Positions 2,499 through 20,864 of a stretch of 24,919 nucleotides of DNA are shown piece after piece (the stretch's first letter is position 1; every line of letters starts with the position of its first letter). The notes below the pieces were generated by a model. The model ran no database searches. It was not told where the DNA came from and worked only from the letters and a program-made list of their open reading frames with translations. This DNA comes from Candidatus Odinarchaeota archaeon. Lineage in GTDB: Archaea > Asgardarchaeota > Odinarchaeia > Odinarchaeales > Odinarchaeaceae. Location of the stretch: contig JAWBON010000015.1 of NCBI GenBank assembly GCA_038826135.1, positions 1 through 24,919 on the forward strand. Direction: 5' to 3'. Both the position numbers and the translations under genes were made by a program.

Positions 2499-3830
2499 GT
2501 GGTTGTTATGTTTACTGGAAGAGGGAAGGTTTTAGTTTTAACAGGGGTTTTTCTACTAACCTCCGGGTTCTCATTTATAAACTATTATCTTCTCACAATC
2601 GGGGTTATGCTCATATTCGCGGCGGTCGTGAACCTGCCTTTTTTTAAGCGAAAACAGTACAGTAAACATATTCGCGTGGAGAGAAGCGTAGACAGTGATA
2701 AGGTTTTCGCCCGCGACTTTCTCCATGTGACTGTTAAGATTGAAAACACCGGCGGTGGTGTAATAGACTCCTTAAAGTTTACGGATATGATTCCTGAAAC
2801 ATTTAATCTTGTGCTCGGAAGCAATAGTTTAACCGCTTATCTTAACCCTAACGGTAAATTAGAGTTCTCTTATATAATTCAACCAAGACTTAGAGGAGAG
2901 TACCGTATAGGGCCTTCGAAAGTTACTGTTCACGATAGGCTTCAACTGAACTCTGAGGATATTAACTTTGACAATTACTCTGAGATTCTCGTTTACCCAC
3001 CTTACGATGATATCCGCCGCTACGGGCAGGTCGGTCAGAGAAGAGTTTTAGGAGTTTTATTCGGAGCGCATAAGTCTCGTGATAAAGGTATCGGAATGGA
3101 TTTCTTCGGTATTAGGAGATACGATCCTTCTGATGAGCTGCGCTGGGTTGATTGGAAGGCTACAGCTAGAACTGGTAAACTCATGACTAGGGAGTATGAG
3201 TCTGAGAGAAACATTAAAGTAATGATTCTACTCGACTCATCCGCTTCTATGAGTGCAGGTGACATGGAGAATAATAAGTTGGAGTACTCGATACGTGCGG
3301 CGGTTCTTCTATCCCAGATTGCTTTAAGCCGTAGAGATGAAATCGGATTAGTGGTTTACAGTTCTAAAATAGATGTTTTTATAGAACCCAGATCTGGTAG
3401 TAAGCAAATATTTAGAATTTTAGACGCTTTAGCCAAGGTTTCATCATCCGGGGTTTCTAAAACATATAACGCTGTTAAATACACGGTTGAACGTATGCGA
3501 AAAAACGTTTTCTACATTATGCTCACCGACTTAGAAGGCTCAGCTAAACCAATACTAGAGTCAGCGAAACTGATAAAAGCTAAAGGATCCGAGGTTTTAA
3601 TTATCTCACCGTTCAGTCCGTGGTTTGAAGTGAAATTATACAGTTCAACACCTGTTGAAAAAGCCTTATCGTTAACCGTCGCTGAAGAGTTTTATGAGGT
3701 TAGGCAGAAACTTCTTACAGAATTGAATAAGTATCAGATTCCTGTTTTAACCGTCGGACCTGACGATTACATTCTCACCGTTGTATCAGAATATCTTAAA
3801 GCTAAGAAGAGAGGGGTTGGAGTAACGTAA
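2499..3830 (+). CDS. DUF58 / von Willebrand factor A domain protein (MoxR partner)
   Basis: N-terminal hydrophobic hairpin and Ig-like region. DUF58 motif GMDFFGIRRYDPSDELRWVDWKATAR...REYESER. MIDAS-like LLDSSAS and LTD. The true start may be the ATG at 2508. Confidence 0.9.
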   Translation: MVVMFTGRGKVLVLTGVFLLTSGFSFINYYLLTIGVMLIFAAVVNLPFFKRKQYSKHIRVERSVDSDKVFARDFLHVTVKIENTGGGVIDSLKFTDMIPETFNLVLGSNSLTAYLNPNGKLEFSYIIQPRLRGEYRIGPSKVTVHDRLQLNSEDINFDNYSEILVYPPYDDIRRYGQVGQRRVLGVLFGAHKSRDKGIGMDFFGIRRYDPSDELRWVDWKATARTGKLMTREYESERNIKVMILLDSSASMSAGDMENNKLEYSIRAAVLLSQIALSRRDEIGLVVYSSKIDVFIEPRSGSKQIFRILDALAKVSSSGVSKTYNAVKYTVERMRKNVFYIMLTDLEGSAKPILESAKLIKAKGSEVLIISPFSPWFEVKLYSSTPVEKALSLTVAEEFYEVRQKLLTELNKYQIPVLTVGPDDYILTVVSEYLKAKKRGVGVT

Positions 3831-3841
3831 AGGAGATATAT

Positions 3842-4900
3842 ATGAGTAAGCTGGTTAAATTATTTAAGGCTCTAAGCGTTTCACTCGCAGTGATATTTTT
3901 AACATTCATACTATTAAGTGTTAAAATAGACGTTTGGAGAGCGGAAGCTCTTCCAACACTAATATACCAGTCAGGCTCGTATATCCGATACGGTTTCACA
4001 TTAATAAACTATTATTCAACAATAGCCTTCATAGAAACGCTGTCTTTTTTAACAGCTTCTTTTAACCCTGCTCTAAGCCAAGCTTTAGCTGAGCTCAGCA
4101 GCGGCTACTACAATAATATCTGGATGTCTCAAACAACATCTTTACCAGCATTAAACTCTATGGCGATGAACCTCTACTATTTAGGTTTTCAAATATTATT
4201 AGCAGCAGCTATTCTCTCTCTCGTATTATTTGTTATTAAAACTCAAGTTAAATACGCTGTTATCACATTTACCTGTTTAAACGGCGTCATTGCATTAGCA
4301 GCCTTGCTAGGTAATACACTGATAGGTTTAACACCTTTATCAGGTAATCCTGTAGTATTTTTCACAAACCCTGTGCTGTTGTTAACTGTTATCTCATACT
4401 TCTACTTAGAGGTTTCTTTCACCTATGTTCATGTAAGTGAACTCTTTAACGATAACAGCAAGCGATCAGAAAACATTCTGAATCGAGTAGCCAGCCTTAA
4501 AACTATTCGTGTCCTAGGGGAGAATATGGTTGAAGCAACTCAGGTTAACGCTGAGCAGAGAGCTACTCTATTTAAACTATCAAGCTTTATCGAAAAATTA
4601 GAGCGGGAAAACCCGTCGTTTCCAAGTCTAATAAGCGGTGAATCAGCTGTTCCTGACCAGAAAAAACTGCTTACAAATTTTATAGTAAAATCGCTTTCAA
4701 GAGCGCTGGCGATTATAATACTTGTATTTATATGCGTTAACCCTCTGCCGATATTAGCATTCATCGCACCTACAGCTTTATTGGAGAGCGTTGAGTTTAT
4801 AACACCGGAGATAACGATACTCTTACTACTACCAATAGCTCTTCTTTTCCCAATGCTTTCCTTAATACTATCATATCGCAGAGAGAAAAATACTAGGTGA
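3842..4900 (+). CDS. Polytopic membrane protein of unknown function (about 6-7 TM)
   Basis: 352-aa ORF with AAGGAG SD at 3830-3835, 11 nt after the DUF58 stop. Several hydrophobic segments flank a roughly 85-aa hydrophilic loop. No family recognised. Confidence 0.75.
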   Translation: MSKLVKLFKALSVSLAVIFLTFILLSVKIDVWRAEALPTLIYQSGSYIRYGFTLINYYSTIAFIETLSFLTASFNPALSQALAELSSGYYNNIWMSQTTSLPALNSMAMNLYYLGFQILLAAAILSLVLFVIKTQVKYAVITFTCLNGVIALAALLGNTLIGLTPLSGNPVVFFTNPVLLLTVISYFYLEVSFTYVHVSELFNDNSKRSENILNRVASLKTIRVLGENMVEATQVNAEQRATLFKLSSFIEKLERENPSFPSLISGESAVPDQKKLLTNFIVKSLSRALAIIILVFICVNPLPILAFIAPTALLESVEFITPEITILLLLPIALLFPMLSLILSYRREKNTR

Positions 4901-5143: not shown

Positions 5144-5929
5144 ATGGTTGTATTGGTTAAAATATCTTATTCTAAAAAATTATCCACCGAGGAGTTGACT
5201 GACTTAATCAGAGAGATAGCCCTGCTGGCTGAAAAAAAACACGGCACTGTAACTATAGACGGGATACCTGTACCTATAACTTTAGCTAAAATGGTTGATC
5301 TAGATTTAGAGCTTGAAGTTGGTAAGGATGAAAACGAGCTTGAATTAGAGCTTAAATGGTCTAAGACCGGGAGCATTGAAGCTGAGAAAGCTACAATTAA
5401 AGCTATAAAAGAATTAAGCGAAACATCGGGAGTGGAGCTTGGGTCTAATGAGGTTCGGGTCGAAGCTGAGAAAACACCGGAGCCTATAAGCCATGTGACT
5501 GAGCCCCTTTCAGAGGAGAAGACGGTTTTACCGGAACAGGCCCCGCTTGAAGAGAAGGCGGAGGCTGATATTGAGAAAAGAATGGAGGCTGTGCTTCAAG
5601 CTTTAACCTCTGAGAAAGAGGGTGAAACAACAGGCGGCGGTGAAATAGACTTTAAACCGCAGGGTAACCTTCTAAAAATAGCTGAGAAAGAAACAGGTGA
5701 ACAGGCTGAGTCTAGTAAGATAAGCAGCTTAGAGGAGAAAATGCCTGAATACACGTCGCTTACCGAGTCTTCGGTAGCGCAGATAGTTGAAAAACTAGAG
5801 GTTACCCCTGAAAAAACGGAAAACAAAACTGAGAAAACCGATGAACTTGACTCTACAGAGGAGCTTGAAAAAATTTTGAAAGCTTTGAAGGAAAGCCGGT
5901 TATCCGAACATGATAAGGAGGCTCAGTAA
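5144..5929 (+). CDS. Amphi-Trp domain protein with long acidic low-complexity C-terminal tail
   Basis: aa 1-73 (KKLSTEELTDLIREIA...VDLDLELEVGKDENELELELKW) match the amphi-Trp pattern ending in ELELxW. The remaining ~190 aa are rich in E/K/S/T. Confidence 0.7.
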   Translation: MVVLVKISYSKKLSTEELTDLIREIALLAEKKHGTVTIDGIPVPITLAKMVDLDLELEVGKDENELELELKWSKTGSIEAEKATIKAIKELSETSGVELGSNEVRVEAEKTPEPISHVTEPLSEEKTVLPEQAPLEEKAEADIEKRMEAVLQALTSEKEGETTGGGEIDFKPQGNLLKIAEKETGEQAESSKISSLEEKMPEYTSLTESSVAQIVEKLEVTPEKTENKTEKTDELDSTEELEKILKALKESRLSEHDKEAQ

Positions 5930-6011
5930 TCTAAGTGTAGCTTTTACCCGGAATATTTGAAGTTTATTTTACGGGCCCGTAGCGAAGCCAGGACATCGCG
6001 CAGCCCTCCGG

Positions 6012-6023
6012 CTCCTAGAAGAA
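6012..6023 (+). other. tRNA intron 1, canonical 37/38 position, 12 nt (CTCCTAGAAGAA)
   Basis: Central helix C32-G, U33-A, C34xA (mismatch), C35-G. 3-nt bulges G36-G37-c and a-a-A38. Relaxed BHB. Confidence 0.85.
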
Positions 6024-6045
6024 AGGCTGAACTCACCGGTTCGAA

Positions 6046-6061
6046 TTTTAAAAGACGGAAA
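6046..6061 (+). other. tRNA intron 2, non-canonical T-loop 59/60 position, 16 nt (TTTTAAAAGACGGAAA)
   Basis: Full BHB. Outer helix is the T stem. 3' bulge a-a-U60. Central helix U54-A, U55-G, C56-G, G57-C. 5' bulge A58-A59-u. Inner helix U-A, U-G, U-A closing an AAA loop. Confidence 0.9.
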
Positions 6062-6084
6062 TCCGGTCGGGCCCGCCAACACTG

Positions 6085-6588
6085 TTAAACACCGCATGCT
6101 CTAATGAATTCATCATTATCCGCCGGTGTTATTATAGCGCTCAACATGTTTTTTTGATATATTTCAAGCAGGTCTCTATCTCTCACTATAGCAACTATTA
6201 TTTTTTCCGGGCTTCCTGCAGTGATCTTCAGCTTTCTCCTAGCTGTTATCTCACTTATTTTTTTAATCTCTGTTAACTGTTCTAAGGGTATTATTTTTTT
6301 ATCAAGACCGTATTCTATTATTATATTTCTCCCAGTGACAGCGTACCTCATATTACTATACTTTATGTGAAAATAAACGCCGAGAGTCACAATCACCCCG
6401 CCTATTGAAACCGAGAAGAGTAGATTATAAACCGGGTTATACACAGTCTCGTACGGGAAAGGCATCAGTAAATAAATCACAATCATAAGTAAAAATCCTG
6501 TGATTAAAAGCGGCAGAGATCTATGCCAGCTTGGAACCCTCATTTTATCCTCGTATACAAGTTCAGCTTCAGACATATCAGCCCTCAT
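6085..6588 (-). CDS. Membrane protein with two TM helices and a bacterial-PH-like domain
   Basis: Two hydrophobic helices, then YAVTGRNIIIEYGLDKKIIPLEQLTEIKKI...IITPADNDEFIRAC, the pattern of bPH-type membrane proteins. The start could be the second Met. Confidence 0.6.
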   Translation of the reverse strand: MRADMSEAELVYEDKMRVPSWHRSLPLLITGFLLMIVIYLLMPFPYETVYNPVYNLLFSVSIGGVIVTLGVYFHIKYSNMRYAVTGRNIIIEYGLDKKIIPLEQLTEIKKISEITARRKLKITAGSPEKIIVAIVRDRDLLEIYQKNMLSAIITPADNDEFIRACGV

Positions 6589-6754: not shown

Positions 6755-8551
6755 ATGGCTCGTATAGCTGTTTTGAAAAGAACTAATTGCAGATCTAGGG
6801 ATTGCGGGAAACCGTGTATGTCCTTCTGTCCAGGTGTGAGAATGGGTGATGAGACGATAAAATTTGAAGAGGGTTCTAAGTACCCTGTTATATCAGAGAC
6901 ATTATGTTCAGGCTGCGGTATATGTGTTAAGAAATGCCCGTTTAACGCGATAACAATAGTGAACACTCCGGAAGCGGTGGAGTCGGAGGCTTCTCACAGA
7001 TATGGTGTTAACCAGTTCGCACTTTTCAGACTACCAATACCGCGGCCGGGAAAAGTTTTAGGAATAATAGGGCGGAATGGAGCTGGTAAATCCACGGCTT
7101 TAAGAATACTCGCCGGTGAGATAAAGCCTAATCTGGGTAATATTACTGACGCCCCTGAATGGGATGAAATCATACAATTCTACAGGGGCTCTGAGTTGCA
7201 ATCATACTTTGAAAATTTATCTAAAGGTGCTCTGAAGATAAGTTATAAGCCTCAATATATCACTAATATACCTAAGGTTTACAACGGTATTGTAGGCGAC
7301 CTCCTCACTAAAATCGATGAGAGAGGTGTCGCGGAGAAATTGAAGCGTGATCTTTACTTGGAGACTATCTGGGGTAGTCAGCTCTCAACTCTTTCAGGCG
7401 GGGAGCTTCAGCGCGTGGCTATAGCTGCTACAGCTGCTAAAGCTGTTGACGTGTACTTATTCGACGAACCGTCCAGCTACCTGGATGTTTTTCAAAGAAT
7501 CACTGCAGCTAAAATCATAAGAGGTCTAGCTGAAGCGGGTAAAACAGTTATCTGCGTTGAACACGATTTAGCTGCTCTCGATTTTCTAAGCGATTACACA
7601 TGCGTGTTATTCGGGGAGCCCGGAGTCTACGGGATTGTATCCCACCCGTACGGTGTTAAAGAGGGTATAAACATATTTCTAGACGGGTATTTACCCGACG
7701 AGAACATCCGATTTAGAGAGGAAGGGATTACTTTTAGTAGAGCTCCTGTACCTAAAATAGTTCAAAAAGATGTCTCGCATCTTCTATTATACGATGGATT
7801 TGAAATAAAACTAGACGGGTTTAAACTGGAAGCGCATTCTGGAGACGTGAAAAAATCTGAGATTATAGGGATTTTAGGTGCTAACGGTATAGGTAAAACA
7901 ACGTTCATCAAAGTATTAGCAGGCTTAATTAAACCAGATACTCCCTTCACCGGCGCAGGGTCCTTGAAGATAAGCTATAAACCCCAGTACCTGGAAAACA
8001 CGTATAATGGGAGTGTTAGAGAGTTCCTTTTATCTGTAGCTAAAACACCCGTCTTGGACTCCTCCACTAAATCCGGGATTATCACACCATTAGAACTTGA
8101 CGACTTAATGGATAAGCCTATACCTATATTGAGCGGAGGGGAATTGCAGAGGGTTGCTATAGCGGGATGTTTGCTAAGAGATGCTGATATATATTTAATA
8201 GATGAGCCTAGTGCTTTCCTAGATGTTGAGCAGAGATTTGCAGCTGCTAAGATTATTAGGAGAATAGTGGAGTCGAAGGGGAAAGCCGCCTTCATAATAG
8301 AGCATGACCTTATAATGTGCGATCATGTGGCTGACCGTCTTATAATATTTGAAGGTGATCCTGGTAGAAAAGGGTTAGCTAACAGCCCCCAGGATATGCG
8401 CGGCGGGATGAATATGTTCTTGAAAATGATGAATATAACTCTTAGACGTGATGTTAAAACAGGCAGACCTAGAATAAATAAAATAGGCTCTAAACTAGAC
8501 ACCGCACAGAAATCTATAGGTGAATACTATTACGCGCCTGTAAAAAAATAG
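6755..8551 (+). CDS. abcE1: ABCE1 (Rli1/RNase L inhibitor homolog) ribosome-recycling ATPase
   Basis: N-terminal 2x[4Fe-4S] motifs CRSRDCGKPCMSFCP and CSGCGICVKKCP. Two NBDs (GRNGAGKS and GANGIGKT, LSGGELQR twice, DEPS twice, EHD twice). C-terminal GRPRINK. Confidence 0.97.
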   Translation: MARIAVLKRTNCRSRDCGKPCMSFCPGVRMGDETIKFEEGSKYPVISETLCSGCGICVKKCPFNAITIVNTPEAVESEASHRYGVNQFALFRLPIPRPGKVLGIIGRNGAGKSTALRILAGEIKPNLGNITDAPEWDEIIQFYRGSELQSYFENLSKGALKISYKPQYITNIPKVYNGIVGDLLTKIDERGVAEKLKRDLYLETIWGSQLSTLSGGELQRVAIAATAAKAVDVYLFDEPSSYLDVFQRITAAKIIRGLAEAGKTVICVEHDLAALDFLSDYTCVLFGEPGVYGIVSHPYGVKEGINIFLDGYLPDENIRFREEGITFSRAPVPKIVQKDVSHLLLYDGFEIKLDGFKLEAHSGDVKKSEIIGILGANGIGKTTFIKVLAGLIKPDTPFTGAGSLKISYKPQYLENTYNGSVREFLLSVAKTPVLDSSTKSGIITPLELDDLMDKPIPILSGGELQRVAIAGCLLRDADIYLIDEPSAFLDVEQRFAAAKIIRRIVESKGKAAFIIEHDLIMCDHVADRLIIFEGDPGRKGLANSPQDMRGGMNMFLKMMNITLRRDVKTGRPRINKIGSKLDTAQKSIGEYYYAPVKK

Positions 8552-8564
8552 AAGAGGGAGAAAT

Positions 8565-10535
8565 TTAATCAGGGCCTTTATAGCCAACCTCTTTCTTCAA
8601 TCCCTCTACACTCTCCGGGTTCTGGAGAGTCATAATATTCCCTAAAGGCTCATTTCTAACAAGTGCTCTGAGAATTCTCCTCATTATTTTACCGCTTCTT
8701 GTCTTAGGTAGATCCTCTGCAAAAATTATTCTCTCAGGTTTACCGGTAGGCCCTATTCCCTTAACCACCTGTTCAACGATCTCCTTCTCTAATTGCTGGG
8801 TTACTGTGGCCCCTGGTTTAAGAATTATGAAAGCCACAGGCGCCTCTCCTTTAATCTCATGTGGTTGAGCTACAACCGCTGCTTCAGCCACAGCAGGATG
8901 GCCGCAGATAACACTTTCAAGTTCACCTGTCGATAGCCTGTGACCTGCAACCTTCATAACATCGTCCACTCTGCCTGTAATCCTTATGTACCCTTCCTCT
9001 GTGAAATAGGCACCGTCAGAGCTGAAGTATACTTTACCACCGTACTCTCCGAAATATGTTTTCTTGTATTTCTCAGGGTCACCCCAAATAGTTCGAAGCA
9101 TACCTGGCGCTAGGGGAGTTTTCTGTACAAGGTAGCCTACATCTCCTTCAGCTGGTCTGTTACCTTTATCATCGTATATGTCGTGTTGAACCCCTGGGAA
9201 TGATCTACACGCTACAGTTGGGATAAACGGCCCGATTCCTGGTATGGAGTTAATTATGGTACCCCCTGTTTCAGTCTGCCACCATGTGTCTGTTATAGCG
9301 CAGCGGCCTCCGCCTACAATGTTAAAGTACCACATCCACGCATCTAGGTTAATAGGCTCACCAACTGTTCCGAGGATTCTGAGAGTGCTTAGATCATATC
9401 TTTTAACCCATTCATCACCCATCTTAATGAACATTCTAATAGCTGTCGGCGCTGTGTAGAAAATGTTTATACCATATTTCTCGATTATAGACCACCATCT
9501 ACCCCAATCCGGTGTGTCAGGGGCGCCCTCGTATATTACCTGTGTTCCACCGCATAGAAGCGGGCCATAGCAGGCGTATGTGTGACCTGTAACCCAACCG
9601 ATGTCAGCTGTACACCAGTATATGTCCTCGTCATGTAAGTCGAAAACCCATTTAGTTGTTATATAAGCTTGAACAGCGTAGCCGCCTGTTGTGTGAACTA
9701 TACCTTTAGGTTTCCCTGTTGTTCCGCTTGTGTAAAGGATGTATAACACGTCTTCGCTATCCATCTGCTCCGGTTCACAATAGTCGTCAGCTTCACTCAT
9801 TAACTCATGATACCAGTAATCTCTTCCATTAATCCAGTTTACATCGATTCCAGCCCGTTTAACAACTATAACTTTCTCAACAGTTGTTCCCTCTACAGCT
9901 TCATCAGCACTAGCTTTAAGATTTATAACTTTACCTCTCCTATAGTAACCGTCAGATGTTACCAGAATCTTCGACTTAGCGTCATCTATACGGTCTTTAA
10001 GCGACTGTGCGCTAAACGCTGAGAAAACCACACTGTGCGGTGCTCCTATTCTAGCACATGCGAGCATGGCGATCTGAACTTCAGGTATCATAGGTAAATA
10101 AATGCTTACTCTATCACCTTTCTTAACACCCAGCTTCTTTAAAACGTTAGCGAATTTGTTAACTTCTCTGTAAAGATCGTTATAGGTTAAAATTCTATTA
10201 GGCTCATTTACCGGTTCAGGTTCCCATATTATCGCTGCCTTATTTCTCCTCCATGTCTCCACATGCCTGTCTACAGCATTATAACACATGTTTAATTTAC
10301 CGCCTACGAACCATTTGAAAAATGGCAGGCTCTCTTCATACACTTTATCGAATGGTTTAAACCATGTTATCGTCTCTTTAGCTATTTTAGCCCAGAAACT
10401 CACAGGATCCTTCTGTGCGTCCTCATATATTTTATCATCGCTCATAATAGCGTACTTTTTAAGCTCTTTAGAAGGCCAAAAAACATTCGGTTTTTTAGCA
10501 TCTTTTACAACCCATTGAACTCCCTTTCTTATCAT
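8565..10535 (-). CDS. acsA: AMP-forming acetyl-CoA synthetase
   Basis: YTSGTTGKPKG, DTWWQTETGG, GRVDDV and PKTRSGKIMRR (acetylatable Lys). GAGGTGAT SD just upstream of the ATG. Confidence 0.95.
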   Translation of the reverse strand: MIRKGVQWVVKDAKKPNVFWPSKELKKYAIMSDDKIYEDAQKDPVSFWAKIAKETITWFKPFDKVYEESLPFFKWFVGGKLNMCYNAVDRHVETWRRNKAAIIWEPEPVNEPNRILTYNDLYREVNKFANVLKKLGVKKGDRVSIYLPMIPEVQIAMLACARIGAPHSVVFSAFSAQSLKDRIDDAKSKILVTSDGYYRRGKVINLKASADEAVEGTTVEKVIVVKRAGIDVNWINGRDYWYHELMSEADDYCEPEQMDSEDVLYILYTSGTTGKPKGIVHTTGGYAVQAYITTKWVFDLHDEDIYWCTADIGWVTGHTYACYGPLLCGGTQVIYEGAPDTPDWGRWWSIIEKYGINIFYTAPTAIRMFIKMGDEWVKRYDLSTLRILGTVGEPINLDAWMWYFNIVGGGRCAITDTWWQTETGGTIINSIPGIGPFIPTVACRSFPGVQHDIYDDKGNRPAEGDVGYLVQKTPLAPGMLRTIWGDPEKYKKTYFGEYGGKVYFSSDGAYFTEEGYIRITGRVDDVMKVAGHRLSTGELESVICGHPAVAEAAVVAQPHEIKGEAPVAFIILKPGATVTQQLEKEIVEQVVKGIGPTGKPERIIFAEDLPKTRSGKIMRRILRALVRNEPLGNIMTLQNPESVEGLKKEVGYKGPD

Positions 10536-19766: not shown

Positions 19767-20864
19767 TTATATTTTTTCGAATCTTCCTTTAAGCTTTGAT
19801 AAAACCTCTGGTAAAGTAGTATATTCTAATTCCTCCGGTCCAAGTCTTGAAGGCTCGAAAGGCCCGTGTCTGCGCATATAATCAGCTATCTCCGCGGCTT
19901 TAAGTCGAATAGTGTCAAACGCGGGGTCGTCGAAGAGATCGGCTGGACCTACTAACTTACCGTCAGATAGTTGGAATCCTAAAGCTATCACTCTGGGAGG
20001 GCCGTCAAACCTTGTGCATTTAGCGTTTTTAACACTCACAGGCATCATGGGGCCGTGATGGCTGCCTCTCATCCAGCCGGCTACAATATGTGGGAAGGAG
20101 AATCCCTCTAATACTTCACCAACAGCTGGAAGCCCGCTTTGAGCCCTAACCACCGCGCACGGGTCATCTTTACCCACATATTTACCTGCTATAAGGGATA
20201 GTCTGGACGTGGAGCATGAGGCTGCTGGTAGACCGTCTTTTCTAATTATCTTCTTGATTACGTATCTGCCTGTTGTTCCTATAAGTGCTAGTAGATCATA
20301 CATCTCTTCAGGAGTGTGTAACTTCACTATTCTGCTCTCTTTCACATCCATCACTTCGAATATGAAGCCGCCATGTATTGATTTATCTATGATTAACCCT
20401 GCTGTGCAGAACGGGTCGGCGAACACGCGGAATAAAGGTAGGTTAAACGCCCCGGGCTCTGTTTTATCCATCATAAACGCTATTACAGGATCGCTAGGTC
20501 TTTCCTCAAACTCCAGTTCAGCGACCCCGGGCCCCATACCTTTAACGTTCCCGGAGAAAGTGTCCGATAAAAGGTCCTGGCCTGCTCCGTAAAGCTTTAA
20601 CTCTTTAGATCTTTTAGTTGCAGCGCAGAAAGTATCCCAGGCAAGACCGTGAATGTTCTCATCGTCTTCACCTCTCCTATGGGTCATAATCAACTCTAAA
20701 TCGTCGCCGCAGTTAGTTACATAGAAGTCTATTATCTTATTACTTTCTTTAGCTTCTTTGAGTTTTTTTCTAGCAACTTCTATTAAATCCGGGTGGACTA
20801 CATGATGGCCGCAAAGTGATCCTATATCGGCTTTTATTACAGAAAAAGTTATTTTCTCAGGCAA
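19767..20864 (-). CDS. fbp: Bifunctional fructose-1,6-bisphosphate aldolase/phosphatase (FBPase class V)
   Basis: IKADIGSLCGH, CGDDLELIMTH, GAGQDLL, DKTEPGAFNLP, YVGKDDP and GWMRGSHHGP. TTG start after GGAGGA. Confidence 0.96.
   Translation of the reverse strand: MPEKITFSVIKADIGSLCGHHVVHPDLIEVARKKLKEAKESNKIIDFYVTNCGDDLELIMTHRRGEDDENIHGLAWDTFCAATKRSKELKLYGAGQDLLSDTFSGNVKGMGPGVAELEFEERPSDPVIAFMMDKTEPGAFNLPLFRVFADPFCTAGLIIDKSIHGGFIFEVMDVKESRIVKLHTPEEMYDLLALIGTTGRYVIKKIIRKDGLPAASCSTSRLSLIAGKYVGKDDPCAVVRAQSGLPAVGEVLEGFSFPHIVAGWMRGSHHGPMMPVSVKNAKCTRFDGPPRVIALGFQLSDGKLVGPADLFDDPAFDTIRLKAAEIADYMRRHGPFEPSRLGPEELEYTTLPEVLSKLKGRFEKI

Follow-up and report, generated by a model that had tools for sequence, protein, structure and literature searches.

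The question raised by this locus is whether 106 nt of archaeal DNA in which tRNA finders see no gene encode a working tRNA. It lies at positions 5973-6078 (+) of the window, by which is meant the whole 24,919 nt stretch that was analysed, and an earlier note, made from the letters alone, had proposed that it is a gene for tRNA-Arg(CCG) concealed by two introns, one of them inside the T-loop. ARAGORN called no tRNA on the genomic window, and the Rfam tRNA model RF00005 did not match the genomic sequence, either at the gathering score or, on 5900-6150, at E<=10, a miss to be expected of a model that cannot accommodate an insert in the T-loop. When the two inserts were deleted, ARAGORN called a 78-nt tRNA-Arg(CCG) with its stems intact, so that both the proposed identity and the invisibility of the genomic form to finders were borne out. 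The reading put forward here is that 5973-6078 (+) is the one functional gene for tRNA-Arg(CCG) in an Odinarchaeia archaeon, from which both introns are spliced out (probability about 0.9), with transcription of the precursor, its cleavage at the exact bonds and its ligation as predicted steps.

Layout, conservation and setting of the gene

Read directly from the sequence, the gene has three exons. Exon 1 (5973..6011, +; tRNA positions 1-37) holds the 5' strand of the acceptor stem (GGGCCCG), TA, the D arm (GCGA / AGCCAGGACA / TCGC) with A20, a single G, the 5' strand of the anticodon stem (CAGCC), and the start of the anticodon loop (CTCCGG), which comprises C32, U33, the anticodon C6008 C6009 G6010 and G37. 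It is identical in 4/4 genomes and lies within the Arg(CCG) call that ARAGORN made on the spliced sequence. Intron 1 (6012..6023, +) follows G37 and is a 12-nt insert at 37/38, of a relaxed bulge-helix-loop form. Exon 2 (6024..6045, +; positions 38-59) continues with an A, the 3' strand of the anticodon stem (GGCTG), the variable loop AACTC, the 5' strand of the T stem (ACCGG, 6035-6039) and the T-loop bases TTCGAA (6040-6045), and among the four genomes it varies in the variable loop only. Intron 2 (6046..6061, +) is 16 nt long and sits at 59/60, between TTCGAA (54-59) and T60, where it presents a full hBHBh' motif. Exon 3 (6062..6078, +; positions 60-76), which is invariant in 4/4 genomes, supplies T60, the 3' strands of the T stem (CCGGT) and acceptor stem (CGGGCCC), the discriminator G and an encoded CCA. 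The coordinates, insert lengths and junctions given in the earlier note were exact, as was its description of four intact stems: acceptor (7 bp), D (4 bp), anticodon (5 bp) and T (5 bp), with all 21 pairs Watson-Crick. Once the inserts are taken out, the anticodon loop and T-loop have 7 nt each. The conserved tRNA nucleotides are present (U8, A14, G18G19, A20, A21, U33, TTCGAAT, C61 and GCCA). A20 is an arginine identity element in other systems, and two further genes of the assembly, Arg(GCG) and Arg(UCG), have it as well.

Folding of the 106-nt precursor with RNAfold gave an MFE structure (-34.1 kcal/mol) that is a cloverleaf with both insert helices, the latter being thermodynamically marginal and missing from the centroid. 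The energy is unexceptional when set against shuffled sequences (z = -0.25; 74/200 shuffles as stable), so it cannot be used alone as evidence. The case beyond chance is a comparative one, resting on the specific architecture, the conserved tRNA nucleotides and the comparison with congeners.

That comparison used this assembly (G000, 93% complete) and three congeneric genomes (G001, G002 and G003). G002 is a single contig of 1,418,269 bases and is probably the closed chromosome of Ca. Odinarchaeum LCB_4. A BLAST search against 60 relatives found full-length orthologues in 3/3 of the congeneric genomes. In the alignment of the four genomes, variable columns number 3/78 in the exons, all of them in the variable loop, as against 17/31 in the inserts and 33/45 in the flanks (Fisher p about 6e-9, with non-independent sequences). 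A strain contig from a second sample carries the gene unchanged, its six differences over 701 bases all falling outside it.

The protein-coding neighbours of the tRNA gene include RLI/ABCE1 (6755-8551, +) and acetate--CoA ligase (8565-10535, -), together with a 261-aa amphi-Trp protein (5144-5929, +) whose N-terminal domain falls just under the NCBIfam cut-off, and ORFs at 2499-3830, 3842-4900 and 6085-6588 that have no NCBIfam match. The tRNA gene lies upstream of the RLI/ABCE1 gene in this assembly and, by matching coordinates, in G001. The earlier note had raised the possibility of an Asgard-related host, and the RLI/ABCE1 protein places it in the Odinarchaeia, since it is 84-85% identical to the proteins of the MAGs Candidatus Odinarchaeia RPA3 and Odinarchaeota J65_bin.29, with the next matches, at about 55%, coming from Bathyarchaeia. 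The sequencing runs that contain this DNA are hot-spring metagenomes. No shared, positioned TATA-like motif was found upstream, all the tRNA upstream regions being AT-rich. A scan of GC islands for other hidden RNAs returned 439 islands and was too unspecific to be of use; those at 19920-20540 of the window sit within a 365-aa ORF and were rejected as hidden RNA.

An intact Arg(CCG) gene elsewhere would have counted against the proposal. None was found when the mature sequence was searched by blastn-short against the 93%-complete assembly, and the single-contig relative G002 gave one Arg(CCG) match. Arg(CCG) was not among the model matches in the sister family (G004-G006, 78-91% complete), which is no evidence of its absence there. 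A covariance model built from the precursor (R1) located all five Arg isoacceptors in this assembly. Besides Arg(CCG), with introns at 37/38 and 59/60, these are Arg(GCG) (C8:17638-17753, -), which has the same two introns in the same layout; Arg(UCG) (C45:290-381, -), with a 37/38 intron only; and Arg(CCU) (C36) and Arg(UCU) (C58), which have no introns. The hairpin of the T-loop intron in Arg(GCG) displays a compensatory change, C:G to or from U:A, across the four genomes. Nearly all tRNA genes of the assembly encode the 3' CCA, and it is absent from Arg-CCU and Arg-UCU, the two uninterrupted Arg genes. As a further observation on gene finding in this genome, ARAGORN -i misplaces introns and gives false identities, reporting Arg-UCG as SeC-tca and three genes as 'Stop-tta'.

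The two introns and their predicted removal

The two inserts are not alike in their motifs. For the T-loop insert, the helix, 3-nt bulge, 4-bp helix, 3-nt bulge and helix described earlier can form and are kept in relatives. Its outer helix (h) is the 5-bp T stem, and the central helix pairs U54 U55 C56 G57 (6040-6043, TTCG) with 6056-6059 (CGGA). The bulges are A6044 A6045 T6046 (A58, A59 and the first intron base) and A6060 A6061 T6062 (the last two intron bases and U60), the inner helix (h') consists of 3 bp, 6047-6049 with 6053-6055, and both predicted junctions fall after the second bulge nucleotide. All pairs of the motif are kept in 4/4 genomes. The inner pair 78-85 appears as U.G, C:G or U:A across them, with one compensatory change, and two central-helix pairs alternate between U:A and U.G. 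Over the four-genome alignment 99.2% of cells pair, compared with 30-54% when the partners are slid; a pair-count shuffle control (242/500) was uninformative for four near-identical rows. For the T arm of G003, the MFE structure coincides exactly with the hBHBh' motif. The strict T-arm BHB of this strain comes to -4.5 kcal/mol versus -6.8 kcal/mol for the local MFE; h' is weak, and RNAfold favours a 2x2 internal loop over the bulges. The cut can be placed at 59/60 or one base further on, at 60/61, since the intron begins with T and position 60 is also T; both placements give the same mature sequence, and bulge geometry favours 59/60. Judged by its pairing, intron 2 is a strict archaeal BHB intron of hBHBh' form, at which cleavage would be expected.

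Intron 1 is not a full BHB. Its bases 7-10 (6018-6021, GAAG) stand opposite C32-C35 (CUCC), and its 3' bulge, A6022 and A6023 with A38, adjoins the anticodon stem. With its 5' splice site in a loop, the element is a relaxed bulge-helix-loop. The central helix has 4/4 pairs (CUCC:GGGG) in G001, G002 and G003, and 3/4 in this strain, where C34 is opposite A6019 and RNAfold does not form the helix. The arm MFE in both G001 and G002 consists of the stem, 4 bp and a 3-nt bulge at 37/38. Seven of the 12 intron positions differ from the nearest relative, the exons of the two being identical. Intron 1 ends in TAGAAGAA, the same eight bases that end the 14-nt 37/38 intron of the Arg(UCG) paralogue (G000:C45:290-381, -), in which GAAG pairs perfectly with CUUC. 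In G002, the 37/38 introns of Arg(CCG) and Arg(UCG) share their first seven bases, ATGATTA. Exchange or common origin of the 37/38 introns of these two genes is possible, the matches being short and weak as evidence.

The earlier note expected this lineage to possess a splicing endonuclease of relaxed positional specificity, and an enzyme of the matching architecture was found. Two EndA paralogues (PF01974) are encoded in each of the four genomes. In this assembly the alpha gene is split by an assembly break into G000:C48:1-135 (-) and G000:C72:2-247 (+); the ends of these contigs share an overlap of some 125 almost identical bases, and the joint protein is co-linear with the complete 188-aa copy of G002 (L048:1216-1779). 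Alpha matches A. pernix 3P1Z_B at 1e-43 with the Tyr/His/Lys residues conserved, the catalytic His occupying the column that is mutated to Ala in 3AJV, and its loop GKPVGIRKPKVPEFDRPL aligns gap-free with the Crenarchaea-specific loop (CSL) of A. pernix, GQPLDVEKPRGADFEGPL, including the conserved Lys. Beta is full length (185 aa; L046:1477-2031, -), is most similar to M. jannaschii EndA (1A79), and has Ala where that enzyme has its catalytic His. By these alignments the EndA of this genome is assigned to the (alpha-beta)2 type with a CSL/L1 loop. Such a loop confers broad specificity (PMC3241643; PMC5829648), and an (alpha-beta)2 EndA with L1 loop has been reported in Asgard archaea including Odinarchaeota LCB_4 (Kaneta et al. 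2018, PMC5829648). RtcB and Archease are also encoded in the genome. The RtcB gene (G000:C16:2439-5360, +; L097:140-3061) is a 973-aa frame containing an intein with a LAGLIDADG homing-endonuclease domain, flanked by RtcB model positions 1-50 and 49-426.

With these components, transcription would yield a precursor of about 106 nt in which U54-G57 would pair with bases towards the 3' end of the 16-nt intron, and the T stem and the 3-bp intron hairpin would flank the T-loop motif with its two 3-nt bulges. The heterotetrameric (alpha-beta)2 EndA would cut after the second base of each bulge, and the same enzyme would cut the relaxed bulge-helix-loop at 37/38. RtcB and Archease would then join the three exons to give a 78-nt tRNA already ending in CCA. 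The T-loop modifications of this tRNA would presumably have to wait for splicing; in C. merolae, precursors whose T-arm holds an intron receive no pseudouridine 55 from Pus4 (PMC9602550).

Other readings of the locus

Were the gene a decaying pseudogene, both inserts would represent damage that is never removed and CGG codons would be read by Arg-UCG. No RNA dataset was listed for the locus, the contigs of four runs showed no joined exon form, and the libraries labelled RNA did not cover the gene, results that carry no weight on expression; the 37/38 motif is imperfect in this strain; and the Arg(UCG) tRNA (G000:C45:290-381) could in principle read CGG by wobble. The pattern of change is, however, the opposite of that of a pseudogene, with exons invariant outside the variable loop in four genomes and inserts and flanks diverging. 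Changes within the insert keep the BHB pairs, and Arg(GCG) shares its architecture, as do five further tRNAs for which no intact copy exists, all of which makes decay very improbable. Retention of the T-loop insert, either in a functional tRNA with a 23-nt T-loop or in a tRNA-like RNA with another role, has nothing specific in its favour and is less probable still. The ends of the insert are constrained just as a BHB needs, with four bases pairing with U54-G57 and then a two-base bulge before position 60, and this constraint is shared by the four orthologues and by six paralogous introns with otherwise unrelated bodies. From what is understood of tRNA structure, an unspliced RNA would also have U54-G57 locked in a helix, and its T-loop/D-loop contact would be lost.

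The identity of the tRNA could also be read differently if the first intron is placed after C35, giving tRNA-Trp(CCA), and ARAGORN -i does report Trp(cca) with a 12-nt intron when only the T-loop intron is removed. That parsing works in this strain only, where the intron ends A-rich, whereas in the three relatives the sole 7-nt loop available is CUCCGGA. It also takes no account of the 3-nt bulge geometry, both A20 and G73 agree with Arg, and a separate candidate for the Trp(CCA) gene exists at G000:C7:10219-10389, so that a tRNA-Trp is the least probable of these alternatives. A functional, twice-interrupted tRNA-Arg(CCG) gene is the reading kept in what follows.

Recurrence of T-loop introns and their wider meaning

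The earlier note also predicted that further tRNA genes of this lineage would be hidden by introns, and a genome scan uncovered at least six others with an intron at 59/60. RF00005 returned 32 tRNA matches in this assembly, 6 of them compact. The scan for T-loop inserts was anchored on the acceptor and T stems and demanded 7/7 acceptor pairs, U8 and GC-rich stems, and because of this strictness its count of seven genes is a lower bound. Inserts of the form TTCRAA | hairpin ... YGRR-AN | T were found in at least seven genes of the assembly, Arg(CCG) included, the others being Arg-GCG (C8:17638-17753, -), Pro-UGG (C5:24247-24377, +), Pro-CGG (C29:12159-12271, -), Leu-CAA (C16:9622-9741, -), Gln-CUG (C28:1819-1981, +) and a tRNA with a CAU anticodon (C5:12805-12986, -) that carries about four inserts. 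ARAGORN finds 0/6 of these further genes, and RF00005 gives only a truncated, sub-threshold match to Pro-UGG. Their central helix with U54-R57 has 4/4 pairs in five and 3/4 in one, and the hairpin bodies of the seven 59/60 introns are unrelated. About 36/42 candidate tRNA genes of the assembly are interrupted, by a hand count that is an uncurated lower bound. A hand-parsed candidate for tRNA-His(GUG) (G000:C66:2351-2479, -) has an insert at 37/38 and another, of 21-22 nt, at about 53/54, the start of the T-loop.

Beyond the genus, model R1 had matches in 117/151 Asgard genomes. Among the matches inspected, 59/60 introns occur in Arg(GCG), Arg(UCU), Gly(UCC) and Ser(GGA) of the sister family, and in Arg(CCU), Arg(CCG), Lys(CUU) and other tRNAs of other Asgard families. 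The same ends, TTCRAA | ... GAAA-N | T, were seen at loci L055, L057, L058, L064, L069, L075, L076, L079, L080, L081, L084, L085, L090 and L093-L095. In family f7 the Arg(CCG) gene is interrupted in the D-loop, at 37/38 and at 59/60, and in family f8 at 37/38 only. Given the occurrence of 59/60 introns across Asgard families, the T-loop can be regarded as a half-site that is always on offer to BHB introns throughout the phylum. A broader proposal is that Odinarchaeia are a further heavily intron-loaded Asgard lineage in which the universal T-loop UUCRA-N serves as a ready-made BHB exon half, 59/60 introns having been gained repeatedly and independently in unrelated tRNAs; this is offered tentatively and is, on balance, doubtful. 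If true, a new 59/60 intron would need only a 3' end that pairs with U54-R57.

The position at 59/60, put forward as non-canonical, is one already known (PMC3239211; PMC3978253). In ARMAN-2, pre-tRNA-Cys(GCA) and pre-tRNA-Pro(GGG) have 59/60 T-loop introns, and the Cys precursor was cleaved in vitro (Fujishima et al. 2011, PMC3239211). The insertion point is the same, the BHB is likewise made from T stem and T-loop, and Pro(GGG) has a strict hBHBh' like that of intron 2. ARMAN-2 is, however, a DPANN host with an epsilon2 EndA, whereas Odinarchaeia are Asgard archaea with the (alpha-beta)2 form, and its genes lack the combination of 59/60 and 37/38 introns seen in Arg(CCG). The permuted tRNAs of Thermofilum pendens and Cyanidioschyzon merolae are joined at 59/60 (PMC3978253), at the same T-loop processing site and by the same BHB logic, but those genes are circularly permuted and Arg(CCG) is collinear. 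tRNA genes with several introns are a typical feature of Thermoproteales (Sugahara et al. 2008, as summarised in PMC4033280). According to the reviews, each of these genes likewise carries two or three short introns, of BHB or relaxed form, at positions both canonical and non-canonical; they are missed by simple finders and rely on an (alpha-beta)2 EndA with the Crenarchaea-specific loop; they belong to another phylum, and the intron positions are compared here as the reviews give them. At the level of the protein sequences, the predicted Odinarchaeial enzyme resembles the (alpha-beta)2 EndA of A. pernix (PDB 3P1Z/3AJV, PMC3241643) in having two paralogues, a catalytic alpha with an aligned CSL and a His-less beta; it differs from that of P. 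aerophilum, in which beta is short, the Odinarchaeial beta having 185 aa.

The nearest parallels are within the Asgard archaea themselves. Introns interrupt 92-95% of the tRNA genes in three complete genomes of Atabeyarchaeia and Freyarchaeia (Valentin-Alvarado et al. 2024, PMC11291895), and in a preprint the Asgard introns that are called lie mostly at 37/38 and in the T-arm, with 25-30% missed by tRNAscan-SE (Goswami et al. 2026, 10.64898/2026.10.13.758758). The likeness is close: the phylum is the same, most genes are interrupted, many of them by several introns, and insertions in the T-arm are common, the majority of them at canonical BHB motifs. Those two studies, in which splicing is likewise predicted from sequence, differ from the present case in being centred on Atabeyarchaeia, Freyarchaeia and Jordiarchaeaceae. 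The word 'Odin' is absent from the main text of the preprint as far as that is accessible, and no description of the Arg(CCG) gene or of the Odinarchaeial tRNA set was found in the accessible text of either. The weight that the earlier note gave the locus for the origin of eukaryotic tRNA splicing was overstated, as the Asgard (alpha-beta)2 EndA with L1 loop and the T-arm introns were already published (PMC5829648; PMC11291895; bioRxiv 10.64898/2026.10.13.758758). The gene is a new case of a published kind, with enzyme type, intron position and Asgard intron richness all known, and it is ordinary for its lineage; it opens no new question, and what it says about eukaryotic origins goes little beyond the literature.

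For the organism, this is the sole Arg(CCG) gene found, and simple finders miss it together with at least six other tRNA genes of the assembly, as a result of which the tRNA set of an Odinarchaeia MAG appears incomplete though it is not so. For the phylum, the four orthologues, the compensatory change and the paralogue of the same layout provide, by comparison of sequences, a documented case in which the Asgard broad-specificity two-subunit endonuclease would act on T-loop introns, and the 59/60 position recurs because the conserved T-loop supplies half of the splicing motif.
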